From positions 47,851-111,850 of the forward strand of contig MFOC01000003.1 of NCBI GenBank assembly GCA_001782235.1: a stretch of DNA of 64,000 bases. Reading direction: 5' to 3'. Below the pieces are notes generated by a model, which ran no database searches, was not told the DNA's origin, and saw only the letters and a list, made by a program, of their open reading frames with translations. Below, in pieces: positions 36,823-59,716 of this stretch. The translations under genes and the position numbers were made by a program. Origin of the DNA: Candidatus Levybacteria bacterium RIFCSPHIGHO2_02_FULL_40_18 (lineage in GTDB: Bacteria > Patescibacteriota > Microgenomatia > Levybacterales > GWA1-39-11). Positions within the stretch are counted from its first letter, which is position 1, and each line of letters opens with the position of its first letter.

Positions 36823-36863
36823 GCTTTGCTGTTCTGAATCCATACAGTACACTACAATATCTA

Positions 36864-39710: not shown

Positions 39711-39716
39711 AACTAG

Positions 39717-40406
39717 ATGAAGTTTAAAATACTAAATGAGTCTAACCTCAAAAAGGCATCTGGCCTTGTTATTATTGTTGACGTTCTTCGTGCATTCACT
39801 ACTATTTGTTACGTTTTCTCAAATAAAGCAGATAAGGCAATTCTTGTAAAAGGCCCTGAAGAGGGTTTGTTGTTAAAGAGAGAGAATCCTAACTATGTTT
39901 TAATTGGTGAGCGTGGAGGTTTTAAACTTCCAGGATACGACTATGGAAACTCTCCTTACGAGCTAAAGAAGGTTAACTTTTCAGGCAAAACTATTGTTAT
40001 GACAACTTCTCAGGGAACTGCATTTTTCTACAGACTTAGTAAACACTCAGAGTGTAAAGAGCTTATTACTGGAAGTTTTGTCAATGCGTCTTCCATAGTT
40101 AATTATATTAAGCAAAATAAGTATAAAACTATAACATTTGTTTGTACAGATAATTCATATCAAAACAATGAGGATTATATGTGCGTTAAGTATTTAATCA
40201 GTTGTCTAAAAGGAAAACCCCTTAACTTTCAAGAAATAAAAAAGGATTTAACGAAACATCCCGTTGCCGAAAGGTTTATTAAAAAACCCTTAACAAAGCA
40301 TGCTCCGTATGATTTCGAGTTGTCTTTGCAATTGAATAAATTTAGTTTTATAATAAAGGCGAACATGTCAACCAAGCGCATAATTTTAGAACAGATAACT
40401 CTATGA
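39717..40406 (+). CDS. 2-phosphosulfolactate phosphatase (ComB) family protein
   Basis: LVIIVDVLRAFTTICYVF N-terminal motif and ~230 aa length are typical of PF04029. Confidence 0.45.
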   Translation: MKFKILNESNLKKASGLVIIVDVLRAFTTICYVFSNKADKAILVKGPEEGLLLKRENPNYVLIGERGGFKLPGYDYGNSPYELKKVNFSGKTIVMTTSQGTAFFYRLSKHSECKELITGSFVNASSIVNYIKQNKYKTITFVCTDNSYQNNEDYMCVKYLISCLKGKPLNFQEIKKDLTKHPVAERFIKKPLTKHAPYDFELSLQLNKFSFIIKANMSTKRIILEQITL

Positions 40407-41869
40407 GCGCTGAAAATAGGCAAGGGGCTCCAGATAGATTTACGCTCCGTAAAGAATACTTCGGAGGTTTAGTACTTGATTCCCATACTCCTAAAAACGA
40501 ATTTCTTAAGCCTCAAGAATATGAATTTTTAAGCCGACTGAAAGAAGCAGAAGGAGTGTTTTTTGATGCAGTCTTAGAAAGCAACCCAGACCTTACACAA
40601 AGAGTTAATGCGTTTGCTGAGACTGGATTTGTTGAAAAAGGGCCAAATGGAGAAATTATTTTAACAAATATTAGACTAGTCCCTCCACCAGATCAAATAC
40701 GCCATGGGGTCCTTACTGCCCCGATACGTGTTTATGATATGTATACTCGAAGATGTAATCTTGCCTGTGAACACTGCTATGCGGCTAGTAATCCATTTAT
40801 AAAAGAGGACAGACGTACTCTTGAGCAGACTGCTGATATTATGAAGAAATTTTACGATGCTGGAACTATCGAGTGGCGTTTTACAGGAGGAGAACCAACC
40901 GTATACCCTGACTTATTCGATGCAATAGATGTCGCTCAAGGGTTGGGCATGAATGTAAGCATGAATTCAAACGGATGGTGGAGTGAAAAAACTGCACAAA
41001 AGATACTTGAATCTGGAATTAGTGAAATGGTAATTAGTATTGAAGGTGAACCTGGAACAAACGATTTAAGAAGGAAAGTAGGTTCTTACAATCACGTAAT
41101 AGATGCACTTGATAAGGTAGCACATCATAATAGATTTTACTCTGATAAAAAGATAGATGTCGTAATAAATACGGCGGTCGGTAGGGACAATATAAACGAT
41201 GCAGAATTTGTCGTCCGTTTGGCTGCTAAATATGGACATAACGTAAACTTTCTTCCATTAAAACCAAGCGGGAGGGCAAGACATGGTCTCCAATCTGTAA
41301 TGTTAAGTACCAGAGAATGGATGGAATTCTCGAGAAAGGTTCAACAGTTAAGAACTGATCCAGAGATACAAGCCTCGGGTATTAAGCTCACTCATAGATA
41401 CAAGGATCTTTTTTGTCCAACAGCACCTGACCAATCTGGAAAACCTTATCCGTTTAATTATGCAGAATGTGGAGCAACAACAACTGCTATAAGCATGTTC
41501 CCTGATGGAAGAGTTTTTGCTTGTCCCTTTGTGATTGAGTTTGATGTTAGAAATGAATTTGTAGGACCAAATATGATCACTTCGTCAGTTGAAGAAGCTT
41601 GGAATCACGTAAACATTGATAAATTCAGGACAGCAGAAAAAACTCAAGGTTGCACCGATTGTAGCCATTTATCGAAAAGGTGCAGGGGAGCTTGCAAGGC
41701 AACAGTTTTGGGATATGGCGGTGAAATAAAGGATGGAAAATTGGTTGGAGAAGACCCATATTGTTACGTTTCTTTAATAGATGAAGAGGACACAATGATA
41801 CAAGAAAGTAAGGCTCGAGGCCGTCAAATGTTACCATTTATACAGCTTGATGACATCCCCACACTATAA
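40403..41869 (+). CDS. Radical SAM/SPASM-domain enzyme with an N-terminal RRE-like (wHTH) domain. Putative peptide-modifying maturase.
   Basis: CNLACEHCY (CxxxCxxC) at about residue 118. FTGGEPTVYPD. C-terminal auxiliary-cluster cysteines (CPFVIEFD...CTDCSHLSKRCRGACKA...CYVS). The ~100 aa N-terminus YFGGLVLDSHTP...LSRLKEAEG resembles RRE domains. Confidence 0.75.
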   Translation: MSAENRQGAPDRFTLRKEYFGGLVLDSHTPKNEFLKPQEYEFLSRLKEAEGVFFDAVLESNPDLTQRVNAFAETGFVEKGPNGEIILTNIRLVPPPDQIRHGVLTAPIRVYDMYTRRCNLACEHCYAASNPFIKEDRRTLEQTADIMKKFYDAGTIEWRFTGGEPTVYPDLFDAIDVAQGLGMNVSMNSNGWWSEKTAQKILESGISEMVISIEGEPGTNDLRRKVGSYNHVIDALDKVAHHNRFYSDKKIDVVINTAVGRDNINDAEFVVRLAAKYGHNVNFLPLKPSGRARHGLQSVMLSTREWMEFSRKVQQLRTDPEIQASGIKLTHRYKDLFCPTAPDQSGKPYPFNYAECGATTTAISMFPDGRVFACPFVIEFDVRNEFVGPNMITSSVEEAWNHVNIDKFRTAEKTQGCTDCSHLSKRCRGACKATVLGYGGEIKDGKLVGEDPYCYVSLIDEEDTMIQESKARGRQMLPFIQLDDIPTL

Positions 41870-42348
41870 AAAGGGTATCCTCTTCGATATTTGCAACCAG
41901 AATAGAAAACACAACTTGAAATGAAGGTTTGGCGCCTTACAGCTGAAAACCCCTATCTTTTAAAACGCAATGGCTGAACTAGACGCAGTATATGGGGGAT
42001 GTATATCGATTGGCTACTAAAAACATCCCAGATACTGGTGGAAGCATTAGCATTACTCTTTCTCCCTCCAATTGGAGCAGCAGGTCTGCACCTCAAACTA
42101 AAAGCTAGCCTCTAAACAATTTCACTACTAAAAGGGCGGGGCAGAGCGGTTTTGTCTCTTCCAGGTCTTTCCAGCTCATTCCAATTACTTCTTAGACAAA
42201 TTCCAACGACCATCCCATTAAAGAACCTCTCTCCTATCTTTTTTAGACCTAGAGCTTTGACGGCGAAAACTTGACATAATAGCTTTGTCATTCTTGCATT
42301 CTCTTCAGTCTCCTCTACAGAGAATAGTCAGATCTTAATGCTACAAGA

Positions 42349-42720
42349 GTGACTTTTATGACATCGATCCTTCTATCTAAGGCAAGGAGAAGATTAGCGG
42401 CAAAAGACCCTCACAATGTGTTCGCAAGCACTTTTGCAGAAACGGGATTTCTAGGGCTTGGTTCTCTAGTTTTATTACTTTTGTATTTTCTTCAAAAAGA
42501 CATCGGAATCATGAAGAGCAGTAACGATCTATCGAAAACATTTGTTGTTTCTTTCTGGACACTTTTTGTTTTTGCGCTTCTTAACCCTTCCTCATCGATT
42601 ATCTACCAGACTCTCTTTTGGCTTTTGAGGGCACTTATTGAAAAATCACCAAAGTTAAGATCGCGTGATTCATTCAATCTTACTGACAATGTAGTTGTCG
42701 AAGACAAAGGTGGGGGTTGA
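42349..42720 (+). pseudogene. C-terminal fragment of an O-antigen-ligase paralogue that runs into repeat R2
   Basis: DPHNVFASTFAETGFLGLGSLVLLLLYFLQKD...FWTLFVFALL is about 50% identical to the C-terminus of 35542..36822 and lacks the N-terminal ~300 aa. Confidence 0.5.
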
Positions 42721-42723
42721 AAT
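42610..42723. repeat. 114-bp direct repeat R2 (right boundary of the cassette). The minus strand encodes ...STPTFVFDNYIVSKIE*
   Basis: Near-identical to R1 (36864-36977). Confidence 0.7.
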
Positions 42724-43033
42724 ACTCAACTTCTTACCGCCATTTCAGATACTACGATTAGCAACGTAATAATCAATCAATCTCCTAATCATGGCTTGAT
42801 AAGAAGCGCTCTTAATTCTGGCTGCTTTTTTAAAGAAGTCAACGCTCTTTTTACTCAAAGCAAGTGTTACTTTTACTTTTTCCTCGCGCAAAACAAGATC
42901 TTCGGGTTTTGGTAAAAAATCCCTTATGGCTTTTGCCTCAAAGGGTTCATTTGTGTATTTTATTTTGGGGCCATTATTTATTTTGCTGGTGTTGGTTCAA
43001 AAGGTAAAAGAATATATCAAACCATAGATTAAC

Positions 43034-44308
43034 CTAGCGAGGTCTTGCTTTCTTAGGAGGTTGCATAGTTATTGGGCCTCTAACTAGGGTTAGAAAATTT
43101 TCTTGATTAAAATATTGATTAGCAACCCTTTTAACATCTTCGGCAGTTACCTTTTCTATTTCCTTTTTTATATAATCTGTACTTAAAATTCGCCCTTCTG
43201 TGGCATACGTTGTAGCGTGCCATTGGGCAATAGAGTCGGGGGTCTCAAGAGAATAATACATATTTGAGATGTCTAAAATCTTGGCAACATTAATTTCATT
43301 TTTTTCAATTTTCCCCTCTCTTAACTTTGCTAATTCTTCATGAATGCATGTAAGGGCACGATCTACATTAACAGGAGAAAAACCACCATAAGCAATAAGC
43401 ATCCCTGTATCTTTAAACGTCCAATTCCAAACCCATGTGCTATACGCTATCCCGAGTTCATAAACTAGTTTATTAAATAAACGCGAGCTTGTACCCCCAC
43501 CAAGAATATCTGCAATAACCCGCATAGCGAATCTATCCGGGTGGAGATAGTGTATCCCAGTCACTGTGCCTATCATTAATAGAGCTTGTTGACTATTTGA
43601 ACGTATTTTTTTGATTTTTTTTATGGGAGGCAAAAAGGCAACTTTCTCAATCTCTCTTTTGCTCTTTATAGTTCCCTTGCCGAAATATCTTTGAATATAT
43701 TGATTGAGTTCACGGATATTAAATTTACCCACTATAGAAATCGTCATATTTGATGGATAATAAAAGTTATTAAGGTAATCTCTTAATTGGCTAGGGTCGA
43801 TATTTTTGATGGTAGATCTTTCTCCTAAGGTTGACCTTCCCAAGGCCTGCTCCTTTCCCCAACAGTATTCCATAAACAAATCCCATATCTCTATTTCAGG
43901 AGTATCCTCTTTCCTCTGAATTTCCTCGAGAATTATGCTCTTTTCCCTCTCAACGGATGTTTTATCAAAAGCTGGATTGAATAATATCTCCGAAAGGTAA
44001 TAGAGCCCTTTCTCAAGATATTCTTTGGGAACCTTCACATTATAGGCAATATATTCTTTATCAGTCCACGCTCCGCTTTTCCCTCCGATAGATTCTATAA
44101 CCTGAGCTAATTCTTTTGCTGTCGGATATTTTCTTGTTCCTTCAAATAACATATGCTCTAGAAAATGAGCATGCCCAGCAGATATCTTTGATTCATATCT
44201 TGGTCCGGCATTAACCGCAACATAAATCGCAATTGAATTAACCCAAGGCACCTGTTGAGTAATTACAGTTAACCCATTGCTCAATTTTTGAATCTTAGCC
44301 TTTTCCAT
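43034..44308 (-). CDS. M16 (insulinase/pitrilysin) family zinc peptidase. Candidate leader peptidase of the adjacent RiPP locus.
   Basis: HxxEH zinc motif (GHAHFLEHMLFEGT). About 420 aa with two M16 halves. Confidence 0.7.
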   Translation of the reverse strand: MEKAKIQKLSNGLTVITQQVPWVNSIAIYVAVNAGPRYESKISAGHAHFLEHMLFEGTRKYPTAKELAQVIESIGGKSGAWTDKEYIAYNVKVPKEYLEKGLYYLSEILFNPAFDKTSVEREKSIILEEIQRKEDTPEIEIWDLFMEYCWGKEQALGRSTLGERSTIKNIDPSQLRDYLNNFYYPSNMTISIVGKFNIRELNQYIQRYFGKGTIKSKREIEKVAFLPPIKKIKKIRSNSQQALLMIGTVTGIHYLHPDRFAMRVIADILGGGTSSRLFNKLVYELGIAYSTWVWNWTFKDTGMLIAYGGFSPVNVDRALTCIHEELAKLREGKIEKNEINVAKILDISNMYYSLETPDSIAQWHATTYATEGRILSTDYIKKEIEKVTAEDVKRVANQYFNQENFLTLVRGPITMQPPKKARPR

Positions 44309-44309
44309 T

Positions 44310-45065
44310 TTATTTACCGAGTGCTATCATATATAAAGGGTATTCCCTAATATTCTCAATATCAAGCAGGGATATAATTTGAGATTCAATAAATCCACCA
44401 ATTGGGCAACTTCTTAAACCTAATTCAGTTGCCAGAAGACATATATTTTGGGATAAGTGTCCGGCCTCAATTAACATATACCTGAACTCCCGATCTCCAT
44501 ATTTTATTCGACTCCTATCAGGGATGCCTGTAATTATTATTAAAAAATTTGCATCTAATATCCACTTTTCATTACCCGTACAGGCAAGAACCCATTCCCC
44601 CATGTCTTCTATCAGTAATGCCTCTAGCGCGTTCTCTTTTACATTATAATGATACAATCCCTGCTTTAAACTTTTTACGCCTAATGGAATTAGATATACT
44701 TCTAACGGATATCTCGCTCCCGCAGAGGGGTATGACCGTCTTGAATCATCCATATCTTTTGGCTCAAAAATAAGCCCGGCAACTGTGTATATTAAACTAG
44801 ATAATAACTTGAATGATATATCTTTTTTAATAAACAATCTTGTTGATCGCCTGCTTGATAATGATTTTATTTTTTTAGATAACGCTTTTTCAAGGACAAT
44901 TTTCGGCATACGAGGATAGGTTTTAAAATGAATTGTTATCCACTCTTGGGGAATGACTTCAACACTGTCCTCAAAACTTATGTTTTTAGACTGTTCATAA
45001 AAAACATCAGAGGCGTTTGCTTGTCCGTTAATAAATTCCGCAATTTTCTTTTTCAGTTTTTTCAT
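44310..45065 (-). CDS. SagB-type (nitroreductase-fold, FMN) dehydrogenase, azoline oxidase-like
   Basis: ARYPLEVYLIP...GLYHYNVKENALE...FRYMLIEAGHLSQNICLLATELGLRSCPIGGF are diagnostic SagB/McbC-type motifs. Confidence 0.7.
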   Translation of the reverse strand: MKKLKKKIAEFINGQANASDVFYEQSKNISFEDSVEVIPQEWITIHFKTYPRMPKIVLEKALSKKIKSLSSRRSTRLFIKKDISFKLLSSLIYTVAGLIFEPKDMDDSRRSYPSAGARYPLEVYLIPLGVKSLKQGLYHYNVKENALEALLIEDMGEWVLACTGNEKWILDANFLIIITGIPDRSRIKYGDREFRYMLIEAGHLSQNICLLATELGLRSCPIGGFIESQIISLLDIENIREYPLYMIALGK

Positions 45066-46396
45066 AAAAAGGGATGGGGAATATTATTCAGCTTTTCCTC
45101 TGTCTTGGGCTTGTATCCCATTTTTTCGGGAGAATCAAACAATCTCATTTTGCCAAAATATTTATACCGTTCATCCAGATAAATAGGTTGTAATTCGGGC
45201 GAAACTACCTTAACCACGTGGACTGGATAATCTTTAAATATTGAACTTGTAATTTCTGCGAAGTAGAAATTTACTCCTTTATCTTTTAGGATTTTGGCGA
45301 TTTTATATAAGCTCTCTTGTGCTTCTGTAGTTCTAGAATTGAGTTTGATATTAATTAAATCGCTATTAAGCCAGAAATTTAGATTTTTAATCATTTGTGG
45401 AGAAAACCAATAATATGCTCTGTCCTCTATGGTTCTGATGTCACTTCTTGATTTGTACCTTTTTAGGTTTCTACCAAGAATGACTTTGTCCCTGGTCCAT
45501 GATCTTGTCATCAAGGACTCTTCTATAGCTCCTACTATTACGTTTCTTTTGTCTAGCCCTGCCTTTAAACCAACTGATATTGACGGACCCAATCCTGTTC
45601 TATCTATAATTATTGCACAGACTGAAAAAATTGATAAATCATTGGTAATATTAATCAAATAAACTTCGAGTTGGTACCTTTCTATTTTATTAATAATATC
45701 ATTAATATATAAATCCCTAATACAATTAAGATTTATTCTTCTGCACGGAATTTTATTGAGGTATGCTACCATGAATGAATCTCTTTCGATTAACTCACAA
45801 ATTCCTCTATATATCGCTGTTTCTAGAGTGTCAGCACATGCAGCTCCTGAAGATGTTCCAAATTGAAGCATAGGCTCCATTCTCTCCCATTTATAAGGTA
45901 CATAAATTAATTGCGCTGGCAACAAAAAGTTATTTCCAATAAAAACATTTTTTGATTCGACCCATGAGTAATTTGCATATAAATATTCTTCTTTTTTTAA
46001 TTTTAATCTTTTGATTTGGGGATCTGAGAAAGATAAAAACAAGAGAGGACTAAGCATTTTACTTTTCTCATATTTCTTATTTTTTATAAGAGGTCTCTCT
46101 CTGTCATCTGAAAGAGAAAATCTCTCTATTAATTCGCCAAATAGCTTTTGCAATGCAGATGTTTGTGAAAATGATGTTCCACTAGCAATAGCATCTTCTG
46201 TTCCCTTATTCTTTCTCTCTTTAAATGAAGTATTATATTGAAAAATTTTAGGCTCATCATTATAAAAAGGGGCTCTATGAAAACCATGGAATATATGAGG
46301 ATATTTTTTAAGGAGATCAAAACCTATATCAATTATATCTTGTGAGTTTTTACCCATAAAGGAATACTTAAGCCTGTTTTGGGGCAGATAATCCAA
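45062..46396 (-). CDS. YcaO-domain protein (ATP-dependent cyclodehydratase or amide-activating enzyme)
   Basis: ASGTSFSQTSALQKLFGELIERFS and FGTSSGAACADTLETAIYRGICELIERDSFMVAYLNK (ATP-binding E-x2-ER motifs). Ends ...NIPHPFL. Translationally coupled to the downstream dehydrogenase (4-nt overlap). Confidence 0.8.
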   Translation of the reverse strand: MDYLPQNRLKYSFMGKNSQDIIDIGFDLLKKYPHIFHGFHRAPFYNDEPKIFQYNTSFKERKNKGTEDAIASGTSFSQTSALQKLFGELIERFSLSDDRERPLIKNKKYEKSKMLSPLLFLSFSDPQIKRLKLKKEEYLYANYSWVESKNVFIGNNFLLPAQLIYVPYKWERMEPMLQFGTSSGAACADTLETAIYRGICELIERDSFMVAYLNKIPCRRINLNCIRDLYINDIINKIERYQLEVYLINITNDLSIFSVCAIIIDRTGLGPSISVGLKAGLDKRNVIVGAIEESLMTRSWTRDKVILGRNLKRYKSRSDIRTIEDRAYYWFSPQMIKNLNFWLNSDLINIKLNSRTTEAQESLYKIAKILKDKGVNFYFAEITSSIFKDYPVHVVKVVSPELQPIYLDERYKYFGKMRLFDSPEKMGYKPKTEEKLNNIPHPFL

Positions 46397-46404
46397 GCGT
46401 TATT

Positions 46405-46620
46405 TTATTTACCTTCTCGTATCTCAACGGTTATTCTGCAACGTTGAGTGCAATGTCCAGGAACAGGAGAACGACAAGGACCGGGAGGGGGATTAGGAGG
46501 AAGCGGCGGCGGAGTTCCGCATCTCGAAACCATAGATTCTCCTTTCAATTCACTTGGAAGCCCTGATGTGAATTCCTTCGCATCAGCAATGACTCTTTCA
46601 ACTGTCTCTATATTTGACAT
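46405..46620 (-). CDS. Candidate RiPP precursor peptide (71 aa) with a Pro/Cys-rich C-terminal core
   Basis: MSNIETVERVIADAKEFTSGLPSELKGESMVS | RCGTPPPLPPNPPPGPCRSPVPGHCTQRCRITVEIREGK. Near-consensus SD (taAGGAGGTGAtaacta ATG). Ends 9 nt upstream of the YcaO start. Confidence 0.5.
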   Translation of the reverse strand: MSNIETVERVIADAKEFTSGLPSELKGESMVSRCGTPPPLPPNPPPGPCRSPVPGHCTQRCRITVEIREGK

Positions 46621-46936
46621 TAGTTATCACCTCCTTATTTAAGGAATACTTGTTACTAAGGTGATCTGCAATTATAGGAAGACTCTCTTCTAAAGGCAGC
46701 TGTGTACTTATTTGCCTTGCTCATGAAGTAACTAAAATATATCACAATTTAGAAACACTTGTCAATTTTTCGTTCTGTGTAAACACATATGAGACACTTT
46801 CCATTAGAATAACTCATCAGGAAAGTAGGTGTTTGTTTTGCTGGTGTTGGTTCAGAAGGTAAAAGAATATATCAAACCATAACTTAATATACGATCTTTC
46901 TTTCTTTCTTTTTGGGGAATTATGGGCGTAATCTAA

Positions 46937-47230
46937 TTACTCGGCGATACCGTCGTAGATAAATTTCTTAATCAGTGCCTGATATGGAATATCCATTTTG
47001 TGAGCCTCTACTTTAACCCTATCGATTAAACCAACCGGTAGGCGAATTGTAATAGGCTTAGTAGTAAGTTTTAAATTTGGGAAAATTACATGCCTTGCAG
47101 TTGAATAATCTACATACTCTGTTGAGTCTACTTTTTGCCAGAACTCTCTTTCCTCTTTTTCTGTTTTAAATTTTGGTATTGGCTTTAGCTTTTTTTTCTT
47201 CATACAACCTCCTTTCTTTTTTATTTGCAA
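46937..47230 (-). CDS. brnA: BrnA-like antitoxin (RHH/CopG-type). Probable true start at the internal Met MKKKKLKPIPKF.
   Basis: EEREFWQKVDSTEYVDYSTARHVIFPNLKLTTKPITIRLPVGLIDRVKVEAHKMDIPYQALIKKFI matches the BrnA family pattern. Confidence 0.55.
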   Translation of the reverse strand: MQIKKKGGCMKKKKLKPIPKFKTEKEEREFWQKVDSTEYVDYSTARHVIFPNLKLTTKPITIRLPVGLIDRVKVEAHKMDIPYQALIKKFIYDGIAE

Positions 47231-47519
47231 GTCTTGCAGAAATTATCCTTATCTTGTTATCTCTTTTTGTAAATACCGTGAACAACGTTCTGTTATCATT
47301 TGACTTACCTATTCCTATAAATCTTCCTTCCTCCTTAGAATGTTTTATGTCATCTTGGAAAAAAAGATATTTATCAACAAATACTTCCTCTGCTTCTCTT
47401 GGAGTAATTCCGTGTTTTTGATAGCTTTTGTCAACATTCCACTTATCCCATTCAAATCCGGTAATCTTACTCAAATCCGTCACTGTACATATATTACATG
47501 TACAAGTACGTGTTGTCAA
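47166..47519 (-). CDS. brnT: BrnT-like toxin (DUF497 ribonuclease)
   Basis: FEWDKWNVDKSYQKHGITPREAEEVF...IRIISARLANKKERRLYEE matches DUF497 motifs. Confidence 0.6.
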   Translation of the reverse strand: MTTRTCTCNICTVTDLSKITGFEWDKWNVDKSYQKHGITPREAEEVFVDKYLFFQDDIKHSKEEGRFIGIGKSNDNRTLFTVFTKRDNKIRIISARLANKKERRLYEEKKAKANTKI

Positions 47520-47547
47520 GCACTAAACCTCTGTGGACGTCACAGTT

Positions 47548-47599
47548 ACTCAATTTTACTGACGATGTAGTTGTCGAAGACAAAGGTGGGGGTTGAAAC
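47548..47599. repeat. R3, a third copy of the conserved 3' gene-end element (minus strand STPTFVFDNYIVSKIE*) abutting the AbiEii gene
   Basis: cagttactcaattttactgacgatgtagttgtcgaagacaaaggtgggggttgaaaca. Confidence 0.6.
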
Positions 47600-47618
47600 A
47601 CTTATTGTTTCCTTTTGT

Positions 47619-48260
47619 TCACTCTAATTTTCCCTTCATATAGGTTTCGACCTCTTGTTTCAAGGTCGAAGTAATTTGTTCGTAAGAGTAATTTTCTCCT
47701 ATAAATTCTATCGGCGTTTGTTCAAGGTCTTCAAAATATACGAGTTGCTCAAGAAATTGAACCTCAACAAAAAAACTACCGCATTTTTTTACTGCGAATT
47801 TTACTATATCGTCAAGTGTCAACAGTCTCTTTTTTAGAACAACAAAAATATCAACATAATCGCGCCAGGTTGCTCGTCTTCCGATGGTGTACGCTTTGTC
47901 AGCTGCTATATCCTTTACACTTGCTAAAGCAAGGTACGGTGTTTCTACTCGCGGGAACGCGGGTTTGAAATCCTGCACAACAAATGTTATGCCAATATTG
48001 CTTTTAAGAATAGTAAAGGTTACTTGCTCGGAAGTATTCCATTTGTAGATAACTTTCCCGAATTTCTCCCTTATTTTATTTTCTAATGATTTTTTAATTG
48101 GATCGTCTACAAATATATCAAAGTCATAAGAAGTTCGATGCCCTATTTGAAGTGCAAGGGCGGTTCCGCCGGCAAGATATCCTTCATCTCGGAAGTCTAC
48201 TAGCTTCTTTAATATCTCTCTGCGGTCATGGTCTAATATCTCGAGGAATATTTTTGACAT
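47619..48260 (-). CDS. Nucleotidyltransferase, AbiEii/AbiGii toxin family (DUF1814)
   Basis: RREILKKLVDFRDEGYLAGGTALALQIGHRTSYDFDIFV is the conserved AbiEii N-terminal block. Confidence 0.6.
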   Translation of the reverse strand: MSKIFLEILDHDRREILKKLVDFRDEGYLAGGTALALQIGHRTSYDFDIFVDDPIKKSLENKIREKFGKVIYKWNTSEQVTFTILKSNIGITFVVQDFKPAFPRVETPYLALASVKDIAADKAYTIGRRATWRDYVDIFVVLKKRLLTLDDIVKFAVKKCGSFFVEVQFLEQLVYFEDLEQTPIEFIGENYSYEQITSTLKQEVETYMKGKLE

Positions 48261-48537
48261 ATAAGAGTTCGCTCATATCACGATCTTCAAGATTTAGGAG
48301 TATATTTTTAACGAAATAAAAGCGTGCTTTTCGATAATCTTTAAATGCCGTGGTTGTGAAAGTTTTTATAATCTGTGAGGCTCCATATTTCTCAAACAAC
48401 CAAAGGATTTCATCCAATCCTCCGTAAGATAGTATCTGATGAATAATATAGTTCTTATCCCGTTCAGAATTGAGCTTACGCACACCACTGGACCATAAAA
48501 CGCTTTGAAGTTTCTGAGGAATTTTTTTTTGCTGCAT
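48226..48537 (-). CDS. Hypothetical small protein upstream of AbiEii. Possible cognate antitoxin-like partner.
   Basis: Overlaps the AbiEii start. No confident domain. Confidence 0.25.
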   Translation of the reverse strand: MQQKKIPQKLQSVLWSSGVRKLNSERDKNYIIHQILSYGGLDEILWLFEKYGASQIIKTFTTTAFKDYRKARFYFVKNILLNLEDRDMSELLYVKNIPRDIRP

Positions 48538-48605
48538 GAGGATATTATATCAATACTGGTAGGCTCTGACAATCGCCGAAATACGTAAAAAGCCTCTGCC
48601 TAGAT

Positions 48606-49418
48606 CTATTCAATCCTGCTCACGAGGTAGTTGTCGAAGACAAAGTTTGGAGTAGAGATACTCATATTTCTGCCCGGAACAATCAGTTGGTCTTCGCCCA
48701 GCACCCATTGACCGTTCAGATTCTTGACTTTCACCTTTGCCTCAACCTCGATTCTCATTCTCGGCTCTGCAATAATTGAAAACACTCCGCCTGAAGCTGC
48801 ATTCATAAGACTTGCTGTATCTATGCCGGTCTTATCGACTACCTCAAAAATTTTGTCCTCGCCGTCAAAATATGTATCCCCTATTTTTATAGCATCAAAT
48901 TCAAACGGATATGCATTACTTTTGATAAGACGAACGGTTTTTTCAGTCAATCTTTCTTCAAGCGGCTTACTGCTTAAACCGATAACCGTGCCGGTAACTT
49001 CGGCTTTTGGAAATTGGATTTCGATTGCCGAACCCACAGATAAGGCGGCCCTGTTAAAAGTGTAACTTCCTGTTTTTTGGTTGCCTGAAACCGCAAGTTT
49101 TAAGGTAAGATAAATGTCGAATTGGTCGCTTCCGTACCAGCGGTAAACCTTTTTTGAAAGGACTTCCGCCTCAGGGTTTCCTAAAAGGCCGAGCGCTACG
49201 TCTCCCTTATTTATCGCGTCAACCTGCCAAATTGAGGGTCGCTGTGTTTGGGCCCACCAAAGTCCCTGCCCTACCTTAACCTTTGCGTAAACATAGGTTG
49301 GTTTTGAAAGAAAAAGTCTCGCGCCAGCCACAAATCCTACGAACAAAATTGCGGCAAAAAAAATGACCAGAAAGGGGTTTTTACGTAAGAATCTTACAAC
49401 TTTTTTGAAATTCATCAA
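48606..49418 (-). CDS. Exported hypothetical protein (N-terminal TM/signal). Only intact member of the family whose 3' end is the R element (ends ...PNFVFDNYLVSRIE*).
   Basis: N-terminal hydrophobic helix LVIFFAAILFVGFVAGARLF. C-terminal peptide matches the R1-R3 remnants. Confidence 0.4.
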   Translation of the reverse strand: MMNFKKVVRFLRKNPFLVIFFAAILFVGFVAGARLFLSKPTYVYAKVKVGQGLWWAQTQRPSIWQVDAINKGDVALGLLGNPEAEVLSKKVYRWYGSDQFDIYLTLKLAVSGNQKTGSYTFNRAALSVGSAIEIQFPKAEVTGTVIGLSSKPLEERLTEKTVRLIKSNAYPFEFDAIKIGDTYFDGEDKIFEVVDKTGIDTASLMNAASGGVFSIIAEPRMRIEVEAKVKVKNLNGQWVLGEDQLIVPGRNMSISTPNFVFDNYLVSRIE

Positions 49419-52868: not shown

Positions 52869-53672
52869 ATGGATGAAATTTACGTAAATATAGCCGATTT
52901 CAATATACTAATCAAAATCCAGCCGCAGGAAACTACCAACAATCCGCCTTACGATTTCATCAGAAACAGACTGTTAACCGATTTGGTTTCTTATTTAGGT
53001 CAATTTATAATTTTAGAAAAGCCTGGAAAAGTTGATTTTGAAATTAATTTTATTGAAGCATGGAACTTACAAATACTGCGAGTCAAAAGTGACAATATCA
53101 GTTACATTCCTCTTTATGAAGAAATTTCGTCGTCTAAGTTTTTAACCTATTTTTTAAACAGCATCTATCAATTCCAGTTAATCTTAAAATACGCTGTCCA
53201 TGAACTTTTGGACAAATCCAGTGGGTTTTTAATCCACTCTTCCGCCGTCAAAATCAACAACAAGGCTTACTTCTTCTTAGGCAAGTCTGCGGCTGGTAAA
53301 TCGACCATTGCCACAATGCTTGCTGACAGATACCCAAAAATCGCAGATGATACAAGTCTTGTTAAAAAAGAGGGTAATCAATTTTTTTTCTACCAAACTC
53401 CATTTTTTGACAAAAATTGGGTCAATAAACACTCCGAGAGATTAAAAATGGGCAAAATGTTTTTTTTAAAAAAAGCCAATTTCTTTAAAGTAGAGAAAAT
53501 CGAAGATAAAGAGCAAATTCTCAACTATTTCTTGAAGGGTTATGTCGTTAACCTCAACAAAATCTCAACCAAAAATGTACTAAAATTTGTCAATAAATTC
53601 GACAACTTCTACATGCTTTACTTTGCAAAAAACCCGGAGAAAACAATAAGACTAATTGAATCCCTTAAATGA
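52869..53672 (+). CDS. HPr-kinase/phosphorylase-like P-loop protein (the RiPP-associated HprK-like kinase type)
   Basis: FLGKSAAGKSTIATMLADR P-loop in the C-terminal half. 267 aa. Overlaps the start of the PqqD-like gene. Confidence 0.4.
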   Translation: MDEIYVNIADFNILIKIQPQETTNNPPYDFIRNRLLTDLVSYLGQFIILEKPGKVDFEINFIEAWNLQILRVKSDNISYIPLYEEISSSKFLTYFLNSIYQFQLILKYAVHELLDKSSGFLIHSSAVKINNKAYFFLGKSAAGKSTIATMLADRYPKIADDTSLVKKEGNQFFFYQTPFFDKNWVNKHSERLKMGKMFFLKKANFFKVEKIEDKEQILNYFLKGYVVNLNKISTKNVLKFVNKFDNFYMLYFAKNPEKTIRLIESLK

Positions 53673-53920
53673 TCAAACTCAAAAAAGGCATAGTCTCTCA
53701 AAAAGTCGGTCAAAAAACCACCATTTTTGACGGCGAGAAGTCAGTTCTTTATACTTTTAACGAAACGGCATCATTCATATTTGACCAGCTCAAAAAAGAG
53801 GCAAAATTGGAAAAAATTGTAGATTTGATGGCAAAAAAATTTAATGTCAAAAAAGAGACTGCAAAAAACGACGTTGAAGAATTTGTCAAAACCTTAAAAG
53901 CTAAAAAAATTGTTTCCTAG
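53669..53920 (+). CDS. PqqD-family protein, RiPP recognition element (RRE)
   Basis: LYTFNETASFIFDQLKKEAKLEKIVDLMAKKFNVKKETAKNDVEEFVKTLKAKKIV matches the PqqD fold pattern (L..N.TA..IW..L.G..T..EI...L...Y.V..E.A..DV..F...L). Confidence 0.55.
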   Translation: MIKLKKGIVSQKVGQKTTIFDGEKSVLYTFNETASFIFDQLKKEAKLEKIVDLMAKKFNVKKETAKNDVEEFVKTLKAKKIVS

Positions 53921-55362
53921 TAGCCGATTGACCTAAGATCACCTGCGCTGTCATCTTCGGTAGAAAACTGTCCGGGTACTTCATTGCTCTTCCATTCAAT
54001 TGGCAGGTTGTAATCGGAAAGATATTCTAAAAGGTCATCCCGGAGTTTTCCCAGTTCCTTTGTCCTTTCGCCGGCCAAATTTTTTGTCTCGTTGGGATCG
54101 GCCACAAGGTCATACAGCTCTTCGTGCCAACTTTCAAGAAGACAGGACTGCGGCAAGGAATAGATATACTTTAAATTGTCCCTGACAATTGCAAACTTGG
54201 AAAAATAGCTGTTGGCAAAAATAGCCCTTTTTCTGGGCGCCGGTATTATTTTGGAGAATTTACCGAATTGTCCTGCAAAACTCTTTCCGTCGAAACTGCC
54301 CTTTTTATAATCAATGCCCAGAAAATCCAAAATGGTCGGCAAAATGTCAACATCTTGTATCAAAACGTCTGATTTTTCCCCCGATCTGCCCTTGGCTGGA
54401 TCAAAAATTATAAGCGGAATCTTGATCGATGAATCGTAAAGAACCTGCCTGTGGTTGAAATAATAGTTGTGATCAAATCCTTCTCCGTGGTCGCCGTATA
54501 AAACCACCAGGGTGTTTTTATCAAGACCCAGCTCTTTAAGATTATCCAAAATTTTACCTACCAGTCTGTCGGCCGCAGCAACCTCGCCATCGTAAAGAGC
54601 CTCCATAAGCTCTATCCTGTCTTGAGGAACCGGATTATTTTGGCAGGATTGATACTGGGCCCGAAGTTCTTCAAGTTCCTCAAGGTTTTTGCCAGAAATT
54701 TCATCGCAGAATTTACTGTTAAATTTGCACCTCAAACCCCCGGGGGCAAAGTAGGGTGCGTGGGGATCGACAAGATGCACCCAGAGAAAAAACCGCCCTC
54801 CATCCTTGCTGCTTTTCAAAATGTCGGCAGAACTTAAAATAAATTTCTCGTAATCTGCCCTTTCGGTCATAGTAAACCTTTCGTTATATTCCGCCTTTGC
54901 GCCATTGTAGTAAAACGATTTGAACTCATGGGTATTGAATACCTCAAACCCCTGATCCAAAGCACTGCCGATGGTGGAATAACCCGCGGTAAAAAACCCG
55001 TTTTGGGCAAGAATACTTGTCAAAGTTTTGTTGTTCTCACTGACCAGAAGACCTGAATTTGAAATAATTCTGGTCTTTGCCGGATCCTTGCCGGTAAAAA
55101 GAGCCGCCATCGAAGGATGAGTCATGGGAACGGCTGTAGCGGCGTTGGTAAAGACTGCTGCGCTTTTTGCCCACTTGTCAATATTGGGAGTCGTATCTTT
55201 TCCATAGCCATATACGCCCATATGGTCAGGGCGTAGGGTATCAATTGAAATTAGAAGAAGATTTTTAGGGTGAGTTGGGGTAAATACGAATTTCCAAACG
55301 AGAGCGAGAAACAAAAAAAGTGTTGAATATATTACTATCCGCCTAAATTTAACTTTGAGCAT
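53917..55362 (-). CDS. Sulfatase-like (PF00884) exported hydrolase or transferase, paralogue of 29481..30899
   Basis: LLISIDTLRPDHMGVYGYGKDTTPNIDKWAKSAAVFTNA. YGDHGEGF. The nucleophile region reads ATAVPMTHPSMAALFTG, with Thr where sulfatases have the formylglycine Cys. Confidence 0.7.
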   Translation of the reverse strand: MLKVKFRRIVIYSTLFLFLALVWKFVFTPTHPKNLLLISIDTLRPDHMGVYGYGKDTTPNIDKWAKSAAVFTNAATAVPMTHPSMAALFTGKDPAKTRIISNSGLLVSENNKTLTSILAQNGFFTAGYSTIGSALDQGFEVFNTHEFKSFYYNGAKAEYNERFTMTERADYEKFILSSADILKSSKDGGRFFLWVHLVDPHAPYFAPGGLRCKFNSKFCDEISGKNLEELEELRAQYQSCQNNPVPQDRIELMEALYDGEVAAADRLVGKILDNLKELGLDKNTLVVLYGDHGEGFDHNYYFNHRQVLYDSSIKIPLIIFDPAKGRSGEKSDVLIQDVDILPTILDFLGIDYKKGSFDGKSFAGQFGKFSKIIPAPRKRAIFANSYFSKFAIVRDNLKYIYSLPQSCLLESWHEELYDLVADPNETKNLAGERTKELGKLRDDLLEYLSDYNLPIEWKSNEVPGQFSTEDDSAGDLRSIGY

Positions 55363-55366
55363 AAAT

Positions 55367-56620
55367 TTATCTTACCATCTTTATGCTTTTTACGCGATTT
55401 AAGAAAACCCAAATTATCGTATAAATCACCTGTTTGTCTAAAAAAACCATTACCTTTCTAAAAAAGGGCTCCGGCGATAAATAGAATAAATTTTTAAAAC
55501 GCTCAATTCCCGAATTAATCCTTTGTTCTTCATCAAATATATTTAGCTTATAAAGCATTTTTCGAACTCTGGCAAAACTGCTATCAGGTCTAATGTCATT
55601 CAGAAAATCACGATCAAAATTTAGTCCGTAGTATTTTTGCAAGATAAGAAAAACAGGATATATGAAATTCATAAGCTTATATTCTTTAGCGAGTTTTGCA
55701 ATTTTAGAAAAATTTTGTTGTTCTTTTGAAATAATGCTCTTCATAAAATCATATCTATAAGCCCCTTTAAAATTATGATGGTAAAGATGAAGGGCTAGAT
55801 AAATTAATAAGTTTTCAGAAGAAAGAATTGGAAATTTATGACTCCAAACACTAACATCTCTTTTTTCTCTTAGAAATTTTCCACTTAAACTATTCAAAAG
55901 ACTCTGCGGGTAAAGAGCATTAAGTTCCCCAAGTTGTGTCATCATAAATACAACCTCAAGATGAATATCGAAAAAGATTGGAAATCCTTTAACTATTTTC
56001 AAGAAATTAACTTCCGGACTTTTATTTTTAAGTCTTCCCAGAGTCTCGGACAATGATGAGTCGAATTCTTTGAAGCCTAATTTTCGTAAAATCGTCTTTG
56101 CGCGAGAAAAAAATTTTGGGCTAATTAAAATGTCGCAGTCGGCATAAATGCGTCTCGGGTGCTTGCCCTCATGGTAAAGGTGGAGAGGCAGACCTTTGAG
56201 AAAAACGAATTTTATTCCTGTCTTCTCAAGCGTTCTTTTAACTTTTACTATTTCGCCAAAATATAGTGTTGATTGAATAAGATAAAGGTCGTCGATGCTA
56301 AATTCGTTCCTTCCCCTTTTTATTTTATATACAACACCGATTACGTTTTTTGGGTAAATCTTCCCATCGGAAGTTTGATTATTCTCCCCTTTTGTTATTA
56401 AGTACTTATCTGTTTTGTAAACCACTCTGTGGGTGAAGATCCTGTCGCCCTGCCTGCCGGCAGGCAGGCCTTTTCGCACGCAGACAATATCATTAACGGC
56501 AATTCTGTCAAATCGTTTTTTTGCAAGATAAACGACGTCGCCGTCCCAAAGTAGCGGGAACATACTCTCACCGTAAGTCTTAAACGCAGAAATCTTTGAA
56601 ATATTTGCAACCTTAATCAC
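55367..56620 (-). CDS. Fusion protein: N-terminal S24/S26-type peptidase-like domain plus an uncharacterised nucleotidyltransferase (PF14907-like) domain
   Basis: N-terminus YGESMFPLLWDGDVVYL is LexA/signal-peptidase-like (GxSMxP). The remaining ~300 aa resemble the uncharacterised nucleotidyltransferase family found in RiPP clusters. Confidence 0.4.
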   Translation of the reverse strand: MIKVANISKISAFKTYGESMFPLLWDGDVVYLAKKRFDRIAVNDIVCVRKGLPAGRQGDRIFTHRVVYKTDKYLITKGENNQTSDGKIYPKNVIGVVYKIKRGRNEFSIDDLYLIQSTLYFGEIVKVKRTLEKTGIKFVFLKGLPLHLYHEGKHPRRIYADCDILISPKFFSRAKTILRKLGFKEFDSSLSETLGRLKNKSPEVNFLKIVKGFPIFFDIHLEVVFMMTQLGELNALYPQSLLNSLSGKFLREKRDVSVWSHKFPILSSENLLIYLALHLYHHNFKGAYRYDFMKSIISKEQQNFSKIAKLAKEYKLMNFIYPVFLILQKYYGLNFDRDFLNDIRPDSSFARVRKMLYKLNIFDEEQRINSGIERFKNLFYLSPEPFFRKVMVFLDKQVIYTIIWVFLNRVKSIKMVR

Positions 56621-56687
56621 TAAGATATTTTAACACGCAGGCAAGCCCGTAATTGTTTCATGTTGTACTAAAGTCTTAAAGAAAAAT

Positions 56688-56891
56688 CTAGGAGGCACTA
56701 TTGGTCATAAGGCACAGAGCACAGGTGGTAGAACCACATGAGGCACAGGTGATAAGAGTGTTACATGAACCTTGCGCATACACAGACGATCCGAAGAGTT
56801 CTTCCGCTGAATCGATAAACCTGCTACTTAAAAAGAAGTTTATCTTGACTCTTTGCTCTTTTATCGCAGGCTTGCTGTATTTTTTTTTCAT
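56688..56891 (-). CDS. Candidate RiPP precursor peptide (67 aa) with a Cys/Ser/Thr-rich core
   Basis: MKKKYSKPAIKEQRVKINFFLSSRFIDSAEELFGSSVYA | QGSCNTLITCASCGSTTCALCLMTNSAS. The start overlaps the stop of the upstream 168-aa gene (ATGA). Confidence 0.55.
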   Translation of the reverse strand: MKKKYSKPAIKEQRVKINFFLSSRFIDSAEELFGSSVYAQGSCNTLITCASCGSTTCALCLMTNSAS

Positions 56892-57394
56892 AGTTTTATT
56901 ATCTCTATTTCAAGTCTATTGTATGATGGATCGGCAAACAAGTCAATTGTTTCCTCTATTATCAACTCATCTCCCGGCTTAAGGTCTGAAAAAATCATGG
57001 GAATATTCACTCCAAGTATTTTTTTATATATTTTAAGGGCTTCAAGATCCGTTTTTCTAAAAAGCATATAGATGCCAGAGCCGCTCTTGCCGCCAACAGG
57101 ACTAATGAATAAACCCTTTTCATACTCTAATCTCCCTTTTATTCCCGGAGTGCCTAATGCTTCCTTAACTATTCCTCTGTATTCACTTTTCACAACTGAC
57201 GAGGCTAAAATATCCTTATTGGCATTGAGGTAATTAAGAACACTGTAATTAATATCGCTTGATGAGACTCTACTGACTTGATTTTGCCGTGCGGCTTCCT
57301 TAGATGAGGGTTGATAGAGAAATAAATATCCAACTTCTATTATAGTAAGTATAAAAAGCGTGATTGAGACAGCAATTATAATTCTTGTTAACAC
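56888..57394 (-). CDS. Membrane-anchored hypothetical protein (168 aa) in the YcaO locus
   Basis: N-terminal TM RIIIAVSITLFILTIIEVGYLFLY. No recognisable domain. Confidence 0.4.
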   Translation of the reverse strand: MLTRIIIAVSITLFILTIIEVGYLFLYQPSSKEAARQNQVSRVSSSDINYSVLNYLNANKDILASSVVKSEYRGIVKEALGTPGIKGRLEYEKGLFISPVGGKSGSGIYMLFRKTDLEALKIYKKILGVNIPMIFSDLKPGDELIIEETIDLFADPSYNRLEIEIIKL

Positions 57395-57429
57395 GTTGAT
57401 TCCAGTTTAGGACTTAGCGACTCTTGGTG

Positions 57430-59480: not shown

Positions 59481-59617
59481 CAGATTGCCATATATATTAT
59501 CAATTAAAAGTTGACCTGTAAAGAATGAATAAAATCAATGGCCTTTTGAAAGAGTTCTTAAATGCATAAGTTTTACCAAGGATAAAAGCTTTTAAGGGCC
59601 TGGCTAAAACTCAGGCG

Positions 59618-59716
59618 AAACTTGTTAAAAGCAGGCGCTATTCTTTGCGGCCAGCGGATTTCACCCTCCCCATAGCGTCTGCTTTTAAAGAGGAAATTGT
59701 TGGGAAACACACCGCT
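59618..59716. repeat. About 95-bp direct repeat A. It is a 3' fragment of a paralogue of the 60465..61793 gene. The minus strand encodes ...FPNNFLFKSRRYGEGEIRWPQRIAPAFNKF...
   Basis: About 90% identical to 60511-60609, which is the genuine 3' end of 60465..61793. Confidence 0.6.

Follow-up and report, generated by a model that had tools for sequence, protein, structure and literature searches.

How did the last few dozen nucleotides of one gene come to stand at four places within a single stretch of DNA? In the 64-kb window (the whole stretch that was analysed), the peptide STP[NT]FVFDNY[IL]VS[KR]IE followed by a stop closes four minus-strand sites, namely an intact gene, here called G, and three orphan tails, R1, R2, and R3. 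The initial annotation had listed four minus-strand sites with nearly the same C-terminal peptide, and all are present within a few bases of where it placed them, with translations of the R1, R2, R3, and G tails that agree with its own. A codon-degenerate search of the window for P[NT]FVFDNY.VS[KR]IE and a stop returns exactly four matches (36924-36968, 42670-42714, 47546-47590, and 48606-48650) and none in 100 shuffles of the sequence; a pattern of this type has no match in a collection of metagenome contigs, which does not include the source organism. The 42-nt core that had been proposed is found exactly in R2 (42681-42722) and R3 (47557-47598), again with no match in 100 shuffles. By repeat search, the sites form a 72-nt family of four copies, in which the R1/R2 pair extends to 130 nt at 92% identity. 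The copies are 74-86% identical to the R1 copy, G is 76-81% identical to an orphan used as reference, and the orphans score E = 4e-11 to 3e-8 against a profile of the family C terminus. A 9-nt stretch, CTTTGTCTT, at positions -39..-31 is common to all four copies. Successive copies lie 5746, 4876, and 1060 nt apart and consist of coding sequence, the end of a gene, whereas CRISPR arrays are non-coding with regular spacings of 25-75 nt; the earlier dismissal of a CRISPR array is borne out. Independent assemblies from different samples and assemblers (k=141 included), covering 38606-59415 and 27542-44822, are 99.99-100% identical to the window where aligned, and the layout is therefore not an assembly artefact. 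No presence/absence variants were found among contigs encoding the exact G protein or the exact WzyA protein described below; all share one layout.

Gene G (48606-49418, minus strand) encodes a membrane-anchored, all-beta protein of 270 residues with a weak match to DUF4330. The reference copy of the repeat is its last ~75 nt (48606-48680), and its C-terminal end translates as …PGRNMSISTPNFVFDNYLVSRIE and a stop. In the AlphaFold model (pLDDT 86) the C terminus forms the last beta-strands; comparison of the model with the PDB gave no fold match at E <= 0.001. The protein has 140 homologues, and the match at 100% identity comes from Candidatus Levybacteria RIFCSPHIGHO2_02_FULL. One G-type gene is present at each of ~94 distinct related loci, and tandem copies occur at none of them. 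The idea that the orphans are scars of a family of several target genes does not survive this count. G is a single-copy envelope gene, and each orphan is the tail of a different functional allele of it, all stacked at this locus.

The orphans separate three modules: an AbiE toxin-antitoxin (TA) pair, a BrnT TA pair with a YcaO RiPP cluster, and a radical-SAM cluster. The positions of the orphans at module junctions, noted from the start, are confirmed for the AbiEii stop (R3), the BrnA-like ORF (R2), and the RelE-like fragment (R1). R3, a gene tail of ~60 nt ending in …TISVSTPTFVFDNYIVSKIE (47546-47605, minus strand), starts ~15 nt past the AbiEii stop and is directly followed by the BrnT promoter. 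R2, of ~70 nt and ending in …GKKLSISTPTFVFDNYIVSKIE (42670-42740, minus strand), starts right after the stop of the BrnA-like ORF and has an in-frame stop just upstream. Both are identified by pattern, profile, translation, and alignment. R1, of ~85 nt and ending in …GRNISISTPNFVFDNYIVSKIE (36924-37008, minus strand; profile, translation, and alignment), adjoins the truncated RelE-like ORF at the start of the radical-SAM module and differs from G by a 1-nt deletion near its 5' edge.

Module 3 (47619-48537, minus strand) comprises a DUF6922 antitoxin-like gene and the AbiEii toxin, both assigned through Pfam, with its own predicted promoter at 48572-48544. Module 2 (42745-47519, minus strand throughout), delimited with Pfam and the repeat search, holds a BrnT/CopG-type TA pair (46937-47519), a 71-aa precursor (46405-46620), the YcaO protein with a nitroreductase-family (SagB-like) protein and an M16 peptidase (43034-46396), and the BrnA-like ORF (42745-42891). 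Its RiPP part is flanked by a 56-nt direct repeat (42977-43032 and 46832-46887, 93%), to which no gene end was matched. Module 1 (37017-41869, plus strand) has Pfam matches to an APH-family kinase, a 2-phosphosulfolactate-phosphatase-like protein, and a radical-SAM/SPASM enzyme, and a match below the curated cutoff to a GFO/IDH/MocA-like oxidoreductase. Its truncated first ORF has no Pfam match and owes the RelE/HigB-like label to the look of its N-terminal sequence. The modules are made up of several genes and bring their own strong promoter-like sites; the inserts measure 1.0, 4.9, and 5.7 kb, with direct repeats of 53-130 nt and no mobility genes. Pfam scans of ~60 ORFs over the 64-kb window contained no integrase, resolvase, or transposase family, and the repeat search found no terminal inverted repeats at the module ends. 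G+C is uniform across the window (0.30-0.41).

What lies on the opposite strand at R2 and R1 points to the ancestral neighbour of G. The initial annotation had taken ~60 bp common to R1 and R2 for a 3' untranslated region; it is instead coding sequence, the 3' end of a Wzy_C gene that runs convergently on the plus strand. Beyond R2 lies a C-terminal fragment of such a gene, WzyB (42349-42720, plus strand), which converges on R2 and is overlapped by it at its end by ~50 nt. Homology is detectable from ~42406, with no Wzy homology in 41870-42405, and ~480 nt of non-coding DNA separate the fragment from module 1. The fragment aligns to residues 348-424 of WzyA, the product of a complete Wzy_C gene (Pfam; 35542-36822, plus strand), and is 58% identical to the Wzy encoded near G, one WecG gene away, in an uninterrupted relative (L136). 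WzyA itself is 28% identical to the Wzy of L136, and WzyA and the GT4 protein reach just 28-29% against their L136 counterparts; WzyA is a non-orthologous replacement of the ancestral WzyB. Immediately past the WzyA stop, with no cargo between, starts the orphan 3' end of a WzyB-type gene (36824-36974, plus strand; ~50 codons, …AVLNPYSTLQYLTLFWLLRALIEKSPKLRSRDS…), recognised by comparison with the WzyB fragment; an 84-nt block (36864-36947) is identical to 42610-42693. Together with R1, this tail is a junction relic (J1). In relatives, the common layout has G convergent with, and often overlapping, a Wzy or glycosyltransferase gene, and in L136 and many others, which are different species at 57-63% protein identity, a single G tail abuts a convergent gene. 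In the ancestral layout, G accordingly converged with a slight overlap on a Wzy or glycosyltransferase neighbour, and the WzyB fragment with R2 is a relic of that junction, R2 having kept its native neighbour. A protein search for the donor lineage of the WzyB/R2 junction gave the self match alone. The cargo-free Wzy orphan is predicted by imprecise allele replacement and not by cassette insertion.

The differences among the tails are biased in a way that a single duplication followed by drift would not produce. Summed over G/R3, R3/R2, and R2/R1, 17 differences are synonymous or stop-preserving and 6 are non-synonymous, with ~20% synonymous expected; the excess has P = 2e-4 for G/R3, 8e-3 for R3/R2, and 7e-3 for R2/R1. 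The copies diverged with the protein sequence under constraint, and the tails are therefore those of different functional alleles. Orphans at G in two other Microgenomates (L073 and L052) show 3:2 each, in the same direction and not significant alone. Neighbouring copies also share perfect blocks, at -39..-21 (19 nt) for G/R3, -52..-19 (34 nt) for R3/R2, and -23..+60 (84 nt) for R2/R1, the last overlapping the other two by just 3 nt. Under random placement of mismatches, runs this long have p ~0.01-0.025 each. Perfect blocks flanked by divergence are what would be expected of exchange products, at nominal significance; the G/R3 block spans the most conserved residues, FVFDNY, which weakens this evidence.

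The same layout recurs on unrelated sequences. On the minus strand at 59573-60615, an intact arylsulfotransferase gene ends with a stop at 60465; next come a predicted HTH-type antitoxin-like ORF and a PIN toxin (59717-60410), and then an orphan arylsulfotransferase 3' end (59573-~59720) that runs in frame to a stop (100-nt repeat, 91%). Pfam covers the PIN and arylsulfotransferase assignments, and the antitoxin label comes from the ORF sequence only. Beyond the 100 nt at 91%, identity falls to roughly half, by eye, over the last ~47 nt. On the plus strand at 28638-29673, an orphan sulfatase 5' end (28638-28850) precedes an NYN-domain gene (28855-29382) and an intact sulfatase starting at 29481 (174-nt repeat, 81%; Pfam). 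The uneven divergence of both remnants indicates homologues rather than decaying duplicates. The 56-nt repeat on either side of the RiPP genes counts as a further instance in the window. At G itself, L073 carries RHH and PIN cargo with a 56-nt remnant (93%) and L052 a DUF4143 ATPase with a 42-nt remnant (90%); these are two lineages among 73 G loci with at least 0.8 kb of downstream sequence. Across the five cases at G (R1-R3, L073, and L052), orphan lengths cluster tightly at 42-85 nt. Close AbiE homologues elsewhere also have flanking repeats, of 58 nt in L127 and 82 nt (93%) in L128; those of L124 and L125 may be just the flanks of tandem paralogues. AbiE homologues at 75-79% identity in other genomes lie in other contexts and lack the G tail.

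We favour, with a probability of roughly one half, a series of imports that needed no recombinase, were anchored by homology, and took place where a variable glycan locus borders on G. Each orphan would then be the displaced 3' end of a G allele, earlier or foreign, and would mark a seam of a recombination hot spot. That hot spot would lie between conserved genes (G, a carbamoyltransferase, and a sugar transferase) on one side and, on the other, a variable block of Wzy and other glycan genes encoding glycosyltransferases. DNA of related Levybacteria or Microgenomates would have recombined in several times, anchored in G or, from the other side, in Wzy, and each incoming piece would have consisted of a complete gene copy and the donor's downstream DNA. 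The distal joint would fall within the final 60-85 nt of the gene copy already in place, or an existing orphan might serve as a short right-hand homology arm; the resident tail would be left behind with its own downstream neighbour. First in the series would be the radical-SAM cluster; the BrnT TA pair would follow together with the YcaO RiPP genes, and AbiE would come last. Host RecA-type recombination, probably following DNA uptake, would be sufficient, and a dedicated recombinase dispensable. The route by recombination, the sequence of imports, and a role for transformation are our inferences; no donor haplotype or same-species empty site was found, and hence the direction and order of events are unobserved. 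Of the roles suggested earlier for the tails, that of homology arms for cassette exchange fits the evidence best, and the locus then shows recombination scars of a fairly ordinary sort, arranged with unusual tidiness. Several features count against an import reading of this kind. For RecA-dependent exchange, 42-85 nt is a short homology arm, and the 9-nt CTTTGTCTT could be a recombinase core. The clustering of orphan lengths, unlike a random illegitimate joint, implies a preferred joint or a reusable short arm, and a site-specific system would fit it too.

Such a system would involve tandem accretion by site-specific recombination, with the tail as att site and the modules as integrase-less, cis-mobilisable units whose recombinase resides elsewhere or belonged to a lost helper. 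We regard it as possible but doubtful. The duplicated segment stops at the stop codon with the reading frame restored, each module has one copy, always in direct orientation, and the shared CTTTGTCTT and the clustered 42-85 nt are as an att site would have them. In known systems of this kind, the tail brought in by the element usually departs from the native one at synonymous positions, as the tails do here. Yet the 64-kb window holds no recombinase, and none is found among the 25 most frequent of the 43 families matched by 52 ORFs that lie shortly downstream of G in relatives; a G-like tail or gene is absent from viral contigs; and the closest AbiE modules elsewhere lack the G tail and are flanked by local, unrelated repeats. 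These same observations tell against the initial annotation's term integration site, if an integrase is meant. The perfect blocks of neighbouring copies lie at differing positions, the Wzy orphan has no cargo, and the layout is present on at least three unrelated sequences in the window, which would call for several separate site-specific systems. Inspection by eye gave no convincing match to a dif/Xer-like site. A somewhat less probable account is true insertion with long target duplication, in which each module entered at a staggered break that copied 40-85 nt of the resident tail, and ordinary recombination later turned over the G allele, giving the copies their allelic look. The architecture fits the published class (PMC2853133), and the L073 and L128 repeats are 93% identical. 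Against it, R1, R2, and R3 also differ synonymously from one another, so that the allele would have had to turn over three separate times; R1 and R2 have 60 nt in common past the tail as well as the Wzy remnant; the arylsulfotransferase and sulfatase remnants are unevenly diverged, like homologues; and the cargo-free Wzy orphan is left unaccounted for.

Two further explanations do without insertion at a tail. A tandem array of G paralogues in the ancestor, mostly deleted or overwritten by modules and surviving as the orphans, would agree with the tandem arrangement of other families here, such as the sulfatases, and could account for the sulfatase remnant. With more than one G copy at 0 of ~94 distinct related loci, and with three remnants all trimmed to a near-equal short length, it is very unlikely. 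Still less credible is a functional non-coding element needed by each module, be it a terminator, a small RNA, a regulatory site, or an attC-like hairpin. Sequence and orientation are indeed conserved at each module end, but eight copies gave no significant or shared structure (z-scores -1.8 to +0.2), terminator-like sites occur at no copy, the substitutions follow the reading frame of G, and the modules have their own promoters.

Two known processes come closest: insertion with long target duplication and homology-facilitated illegitimate recombination. In the former (Nobusato et al. 2000; Furuta, Abe & Kobayashi 2010; PMC2853133), a selfish module of <20 kb without mobility genes is bounded by direct repeats of >30 bp. 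The published cases are restriction-modification modules, mostly in naturally competent species, and the repeats span tens to hundreds of bp and sometimes overlap a gene 3' end (PMC2853133). Small addiction-type modules, direct repeats, and the lack of an integrase or transposase are found here as well. The cargo differs, being TA pairs, RiPP genes, and a radical-SAM cluster where restriction-modification was known, and a single gene tail has accumulated three events. The repeats described in the literature hardly differ from the target in the empty site, whereas those here are 76-93% identical, with mostly synonymous, allelic differences. Homology-facilitated illegitimate recombination anchors one end by homology and joins the other illegitimately, adding cargo beside the anchor, and is a candidate here; this process is not known to confine its joints to a range as narrow as 42-85 nt.

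Integrases can also insert elements at the 3' end of a protein-coding gene and supply an element-borne tail, as with phage 21 and e14 in icd and with ICESt1, ICESt3, and CIMEs in fda. CIMEs have no integrase of their own, and tandem accretion yields arrays of att sites. A displaced orphan tail at the far end of the insert and synonymous differences between tails are found in those systems and here; the present locus differs in having no integrase in the window, no helper element seen, and a variable crossover position, and its layout is also present on unrelated sequences. Capsule and O-antigen cassettes switch through conserved flanking genes by a clean double crossover, without duplication of an arm. 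Here too a variable glycan block (Wzy, GT4, and GT2, non-orthologous to those of L136) is bounded by a conserved arm gene, but the seams are imprecise and non-glycan cargo (TA pairs, RiPP, and radical-SAM clusters) has accumulated. Integron arrays have IntI with attI, attC sites that form imperfect hairpins, and mostly promoterless single-ORF cassettes; here the window shows no integrase, the copies fold no better than shuffles, and the modules have several genes and promoter-like sites. The inverted ends and transposase of transposons and insertion sequences (IS) are likewise absent, unlike in the genuine IS of a relative (L014).

CPR/Patescibacteria have tiny genomes with few recognisable mobile elements, and their acquisition of accessory genes is poorly understood. 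The locus offers a readable record of it, with three stacked imports at one tail and at least three similar seams within 64 kb, and no recombinase near any of them. If the pattern were genome-wide, imprecise homology-anchored recombination would be a main route to defence, addiction, and natural-product modules, and insertion with long target duplication would be widened from restriction-modification to toxin-antitoxin systems. An orphan tail beside an intact copy of the same gene is also a simple signature of recently imported cargo in uncultivated genomes. A bolder idea, which we put forward tentatively and think unlikely, is that CPR gene termini act as portable homology arms, the gene serving as left arm and the orphan tail (40-130 nt) as right arm of a unit moved by RecA. 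Such a gene-module-tail unit could enter any genome that has the gene, whatever lies downstream. It would amount to a recombinase-free cassette system, integron-like in function, that builds ordered arrays and carries TA pairs and small biosynthetic clusters between naturally transformable genomes that have diverged.

Among the related loci, weak profile matches in L006 and L065 proved not to be gene tails, and a perfect 46-nt repeat in L014 is part of an ordinary IS whose ends are inverted. Beside the TA pair of L073 and L014, the sequence TGATAGAATTTGGGTATGA has a promoter-like look and stands on opposite sides in the two genomes.

Four minus-strand sites end in a common C-terminal peptide and stop codon, as the initial annotation had proposed and as ORFs and translations bear out: the intact 270-aa gene G (48606–49418) and three orphan copies of its 3′ tail, R3 (47546 to ~47605), R2 (42670 to ~42740), and R1 (36924 to ~37008). 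The 42-nt core suggested there matches R2 and R3 exactly, with 0 matches in 100 shuffles, and a codon-degenerate pattern for the 14-residue peptide and stop matches only the sites of G, R1, R2, and R3 (0 in shuffles). A repeat search returned a 72-nt family of four copies with spacings of 5746, 4876, and 1060 nt; R1 and R2 pair as a 130-nt repeat (92%), and the orphans score E = 4e-11 to 3e-8 against a profile of the last 34 residues of the G family. The four-copy structure is not an assembly artifact, because independent contigs obtained with more than one assembler and from different samples, k = 141 assemblies among them, are 99.99–100% identical to the window over all aligned parts, a comparison covering window positions 38606–59415 and 27542–44822. 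Two independent contigs end within the 84-nt block common to R1 and R2, L134 at window 36947 and L135 at 36919. Such ends are consistent with a repeat-induced break, the behavior expected of a genuine repeat; alternatively, they could reflect population variation at the R1/R2 seam. In a JGI contig (L131), the first 167 nt (1–167) have no counterpart in the window, alignment starting at window 30077 within a sulfatase gene; the unmatched stretch may come from a strain variant or from a chimeric end of the contig.

Differences among G and the orphans follow the G reading frame. Summed over G/R3, R3/R2, and R2/R1, 17 changes are synonymous or stop-preserving and 6 are non-synonymous (conservative), whereas chance would give ~20% synonymous (P = 2e-4, 8e-3, and 7e-3, respectively). 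By this excess, each orphan diverged while it was the end of a working gene; the orphans are the tails of different alleles and not the decayed products of a single duplication. Each neighboring pair also contains one perfect block with divergence on either side (19 nt for G/R3, 34 nt for R3/R2, and 84 nt for R2/R1), with nominal p of about 0.01–0.025 each under random mismatch placement. The blocks form the kind of mosaic that exchange products would leave.

The 60 nt that R1 and R2 share downstream had been taken for a 3′ UTR, a reading that does not hold, as the plus strand there encodes the C terminus of a Wzy_C protein. A WzyB fragment of ~100 codons remains at R2 (ORF 42349–42720, plus strand), overlapping it by ~50 nt, and a Wzy remnant of ~50 codons remains at R1 (36824–36974, plus strand), beginning directly after the stop of the complete Wzy gene, WzyA (35542–36822), with no cargo between. 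G is single-copy in 113 related loci, where it is commonly convergent with a Wzy or glycosyltransferase gene, frequently overlapping by a few bases. The relative L136 retains an uninterrupted order of G, convergent WecG (60-nt overlap with G), Wzy, and GT4. The Wzy of L136 shares 58% identity with the WzyB fragment and just 28% with WzyA, and the GT4 of L136 shares just 29% with that of the window. This layout and these identities show R2 with the WzyB fragment and R1 with the Wzy remnant to be two relics of the ancestral convergent junction, and WzyA/GT4/GT2 to be a non-orthologous replacement set. Read antisense, the last 50–60 nt of G also extend the C terminus of the gene that converges on it (WzyB at window 42670–42720; WecG at L136 8799–8858), and substitutions follow the frame of G, not the antisense frame.

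The G protein, from Candidatus Levybacteria RIFCSPHIGHO2_02_FULL, is membrane-anchored and all-beta, with a weak DUF4330 match; in its confidently predicted structure (pLDDT 86) the conserved C terminus forms the last beta-strands, and a fold search found no solved structures resembling the model. The gene sits in a cell-envelope glycan locus, with a carbamoyltransferase and a sugar transferase on one side and Wzy_C, GT4, and GT2 on the other. Between WzyA and G lie three modules, each of which, read in the orientation of G, terminates in a G tail. Module 3 (47619–48537) carries DUF6922 and AbiEii. In module 2 (42745–47519), genes for a precursor, YcaO, a nitroreductase-family protein, and an M16 peptidase lie between a BrnT/CopG TA pair and a BrnA-like ORF. 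Module 1 (37017–41869) opens with a truncated RelE-like ORF and also encodes a kinase, a ComB-like phosphatase, a radical-SAM/SPASM enzyme, and a putatively GFO/IDH/MocA-like oxidoreductase, its Pfam match lying below the cutoff. The region's strongest promoter-like sites directly follow the G stop and R3 or precede the precursor gene, so that the modules look like self-contained transcription units.

Within module 2, the 71-aa ORF upstream of YcaO (46405–46620, minus strand) has a C-terminal half rich in Pro, Cys, Ser, and Thr (…CGTPPPLPPNPPPGPCRSPVPGHCTQRC…) and no Pfam family match, and is a plausible candidate RiPP precursor. A 56-nt direct repeat (93%; 42977–43032 and 46832–46887), for which no gene end was found as origin, flanks the precursor/YcaO/nitroreductase-family/M16 RiPP cluster. 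A second YcaO cluster on the other side of G (52869–59480) contains YcaO, nitroreductase, NTP_transf_5, and sulfatase, to which precomputed annotation of identical contigs adds ScmC and PqqD; it is this cluster, not that of module 2, that is syntenic in relatives.

Among 73 loci with enough downstream sequence, two other Microgenomates lineages show the gene–cargo–tail layout at G: an RHH+PIN pair followed by a 56-nt tail copy (93%) in L073, and a DUF4143 ATPase followed by a 42-nt copy (90%) in L052. TA genes (PIN, RHH, HicB, HEPN, Fic, and AbiEii) are frequent directly downstream of G in relatives, and close AbiE homologs carry local-sequence repeats on both sides (58 nt in L127, 82 nt in L128). 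Remnants of an arylsulfotransferase and a sulfatase gene in the window diverge unevenly along their length, in a homolog-like manner. The gene/cargo/remnant layout is general and not tied to the sequence of G: in the 64-kb window it also shows at these two genes, with the 56-nt repeat around the RiPP cluster and the cargo-free Wzy orphan after WzyA as further cases.

At the sulfatase seam (28638–29673), the orphan is a sulfatase 5′ end forming a 70-aa ORF that has its own ATG; an NYN-domain gene begins 4 nt downstream, ahead of the intact sulfatase, and the repeat measures 174 nt (81%). At the arylsulfotransferase seam (59573–60615), a PIN toxin and an HTH-type antitoxin-like ORF separate the gene from an orphan 3′ end corresponding to its last ~150 nt, which still runs in frame to a stop; over the first 100 nt the orphan is 91% identical to the gene, and its tail is much more diverged. 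A promoter-like motif, TGATAGAATTTGGGTATGA, precedes the RHH+PIN pair in L073 (10802–10848) and follows it in the related L014 (11485–11520); lying on opposite sides, it indicates that the joints of this shared TA pair differ slightly between the two genomes.

The best-supported account is import, repeated and anchored by homology, where the conserved block meets the variable glycan block. Each time, a complete gene copy with its donor's downstream sequence would replace the resident copy, the distal joint falling within the last 60–85 nt of the resident gene or an existing orphan serving as the short arm on the right; the resident tail and its own neighbor would thereby be left stranded. We infer the recombination route, the event order, and the role of DNA uptake. 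Such import accounts for the allelic divergence, mosaic blocks, retained WzyB neighbor, cargo-free Wzy orphan, lack of enzymes, and recurrence on unrelated sequences; the 42–85 nt length of all five G orphans is not explained by it alone. That clustering, together with a 9-nt CTTTGTCTT common to the copies, would suit a trans-acting site-specific recombinase, the main rival, which we consider unlikely. Among ~60 ORFs across the 64-kb window, Pfam scans revealed neither an integrase nor a resolvase or transposase. Capsule-locus switching and integrase-driven tail replacement (icd, fda) serve as analogies; the latter is defined by a recombinase, which the scans looked for and did not find. No inverted repeats were found at module ends, the fold of the G-tail repeat is neither significant nor common to the copies, and window composition is uniform. 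Both the G tail and the G gene are absent from the viral contigs searched, and the tail is absent from the closest AbiE modules in other genomes (75–79% identity).

Insertion with long target duplication is the closest documented phenomenon. It involves restriction-modification modules without mobility genes and repeats >30 bp that sometimes overlap a gene 3′ end, mostly in competent species and by an unknown mechanism (PMC2853133), and a review reports it for restriction-modification systems only, not classical TA systems (PMC3874152). The G locus differs in its cargo, the allelic nature of its copies, and its three stacked events. Genuine long target duplication with later allele turnover, the next rival, seems rather improbable. 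The closest known process is homology-facilitated illegitimate recombination (PMC3240628). The locus is a real, neatly preserved recombination record and not a new kind of element; its significance would be higher if population data show orphan tails reused as portable homology arms.

The enzyme-free seams of the window contrast with L014 14187–15885, an ordinary IS with inverted ends AAAAGCGGACATTTCTA, a 46-nt perfect direct repeat, a solo end copy, and a 438-aa ORF judged by eye to be a putative transposase. Short-period coding repeats also occur within window ORFs, with periods of 18 nt (6180–6302) and 12 nt (25267–25810), the latter in a 1180-aa Laminin_G/SdrD-like ORF that is presumably a surface protein.
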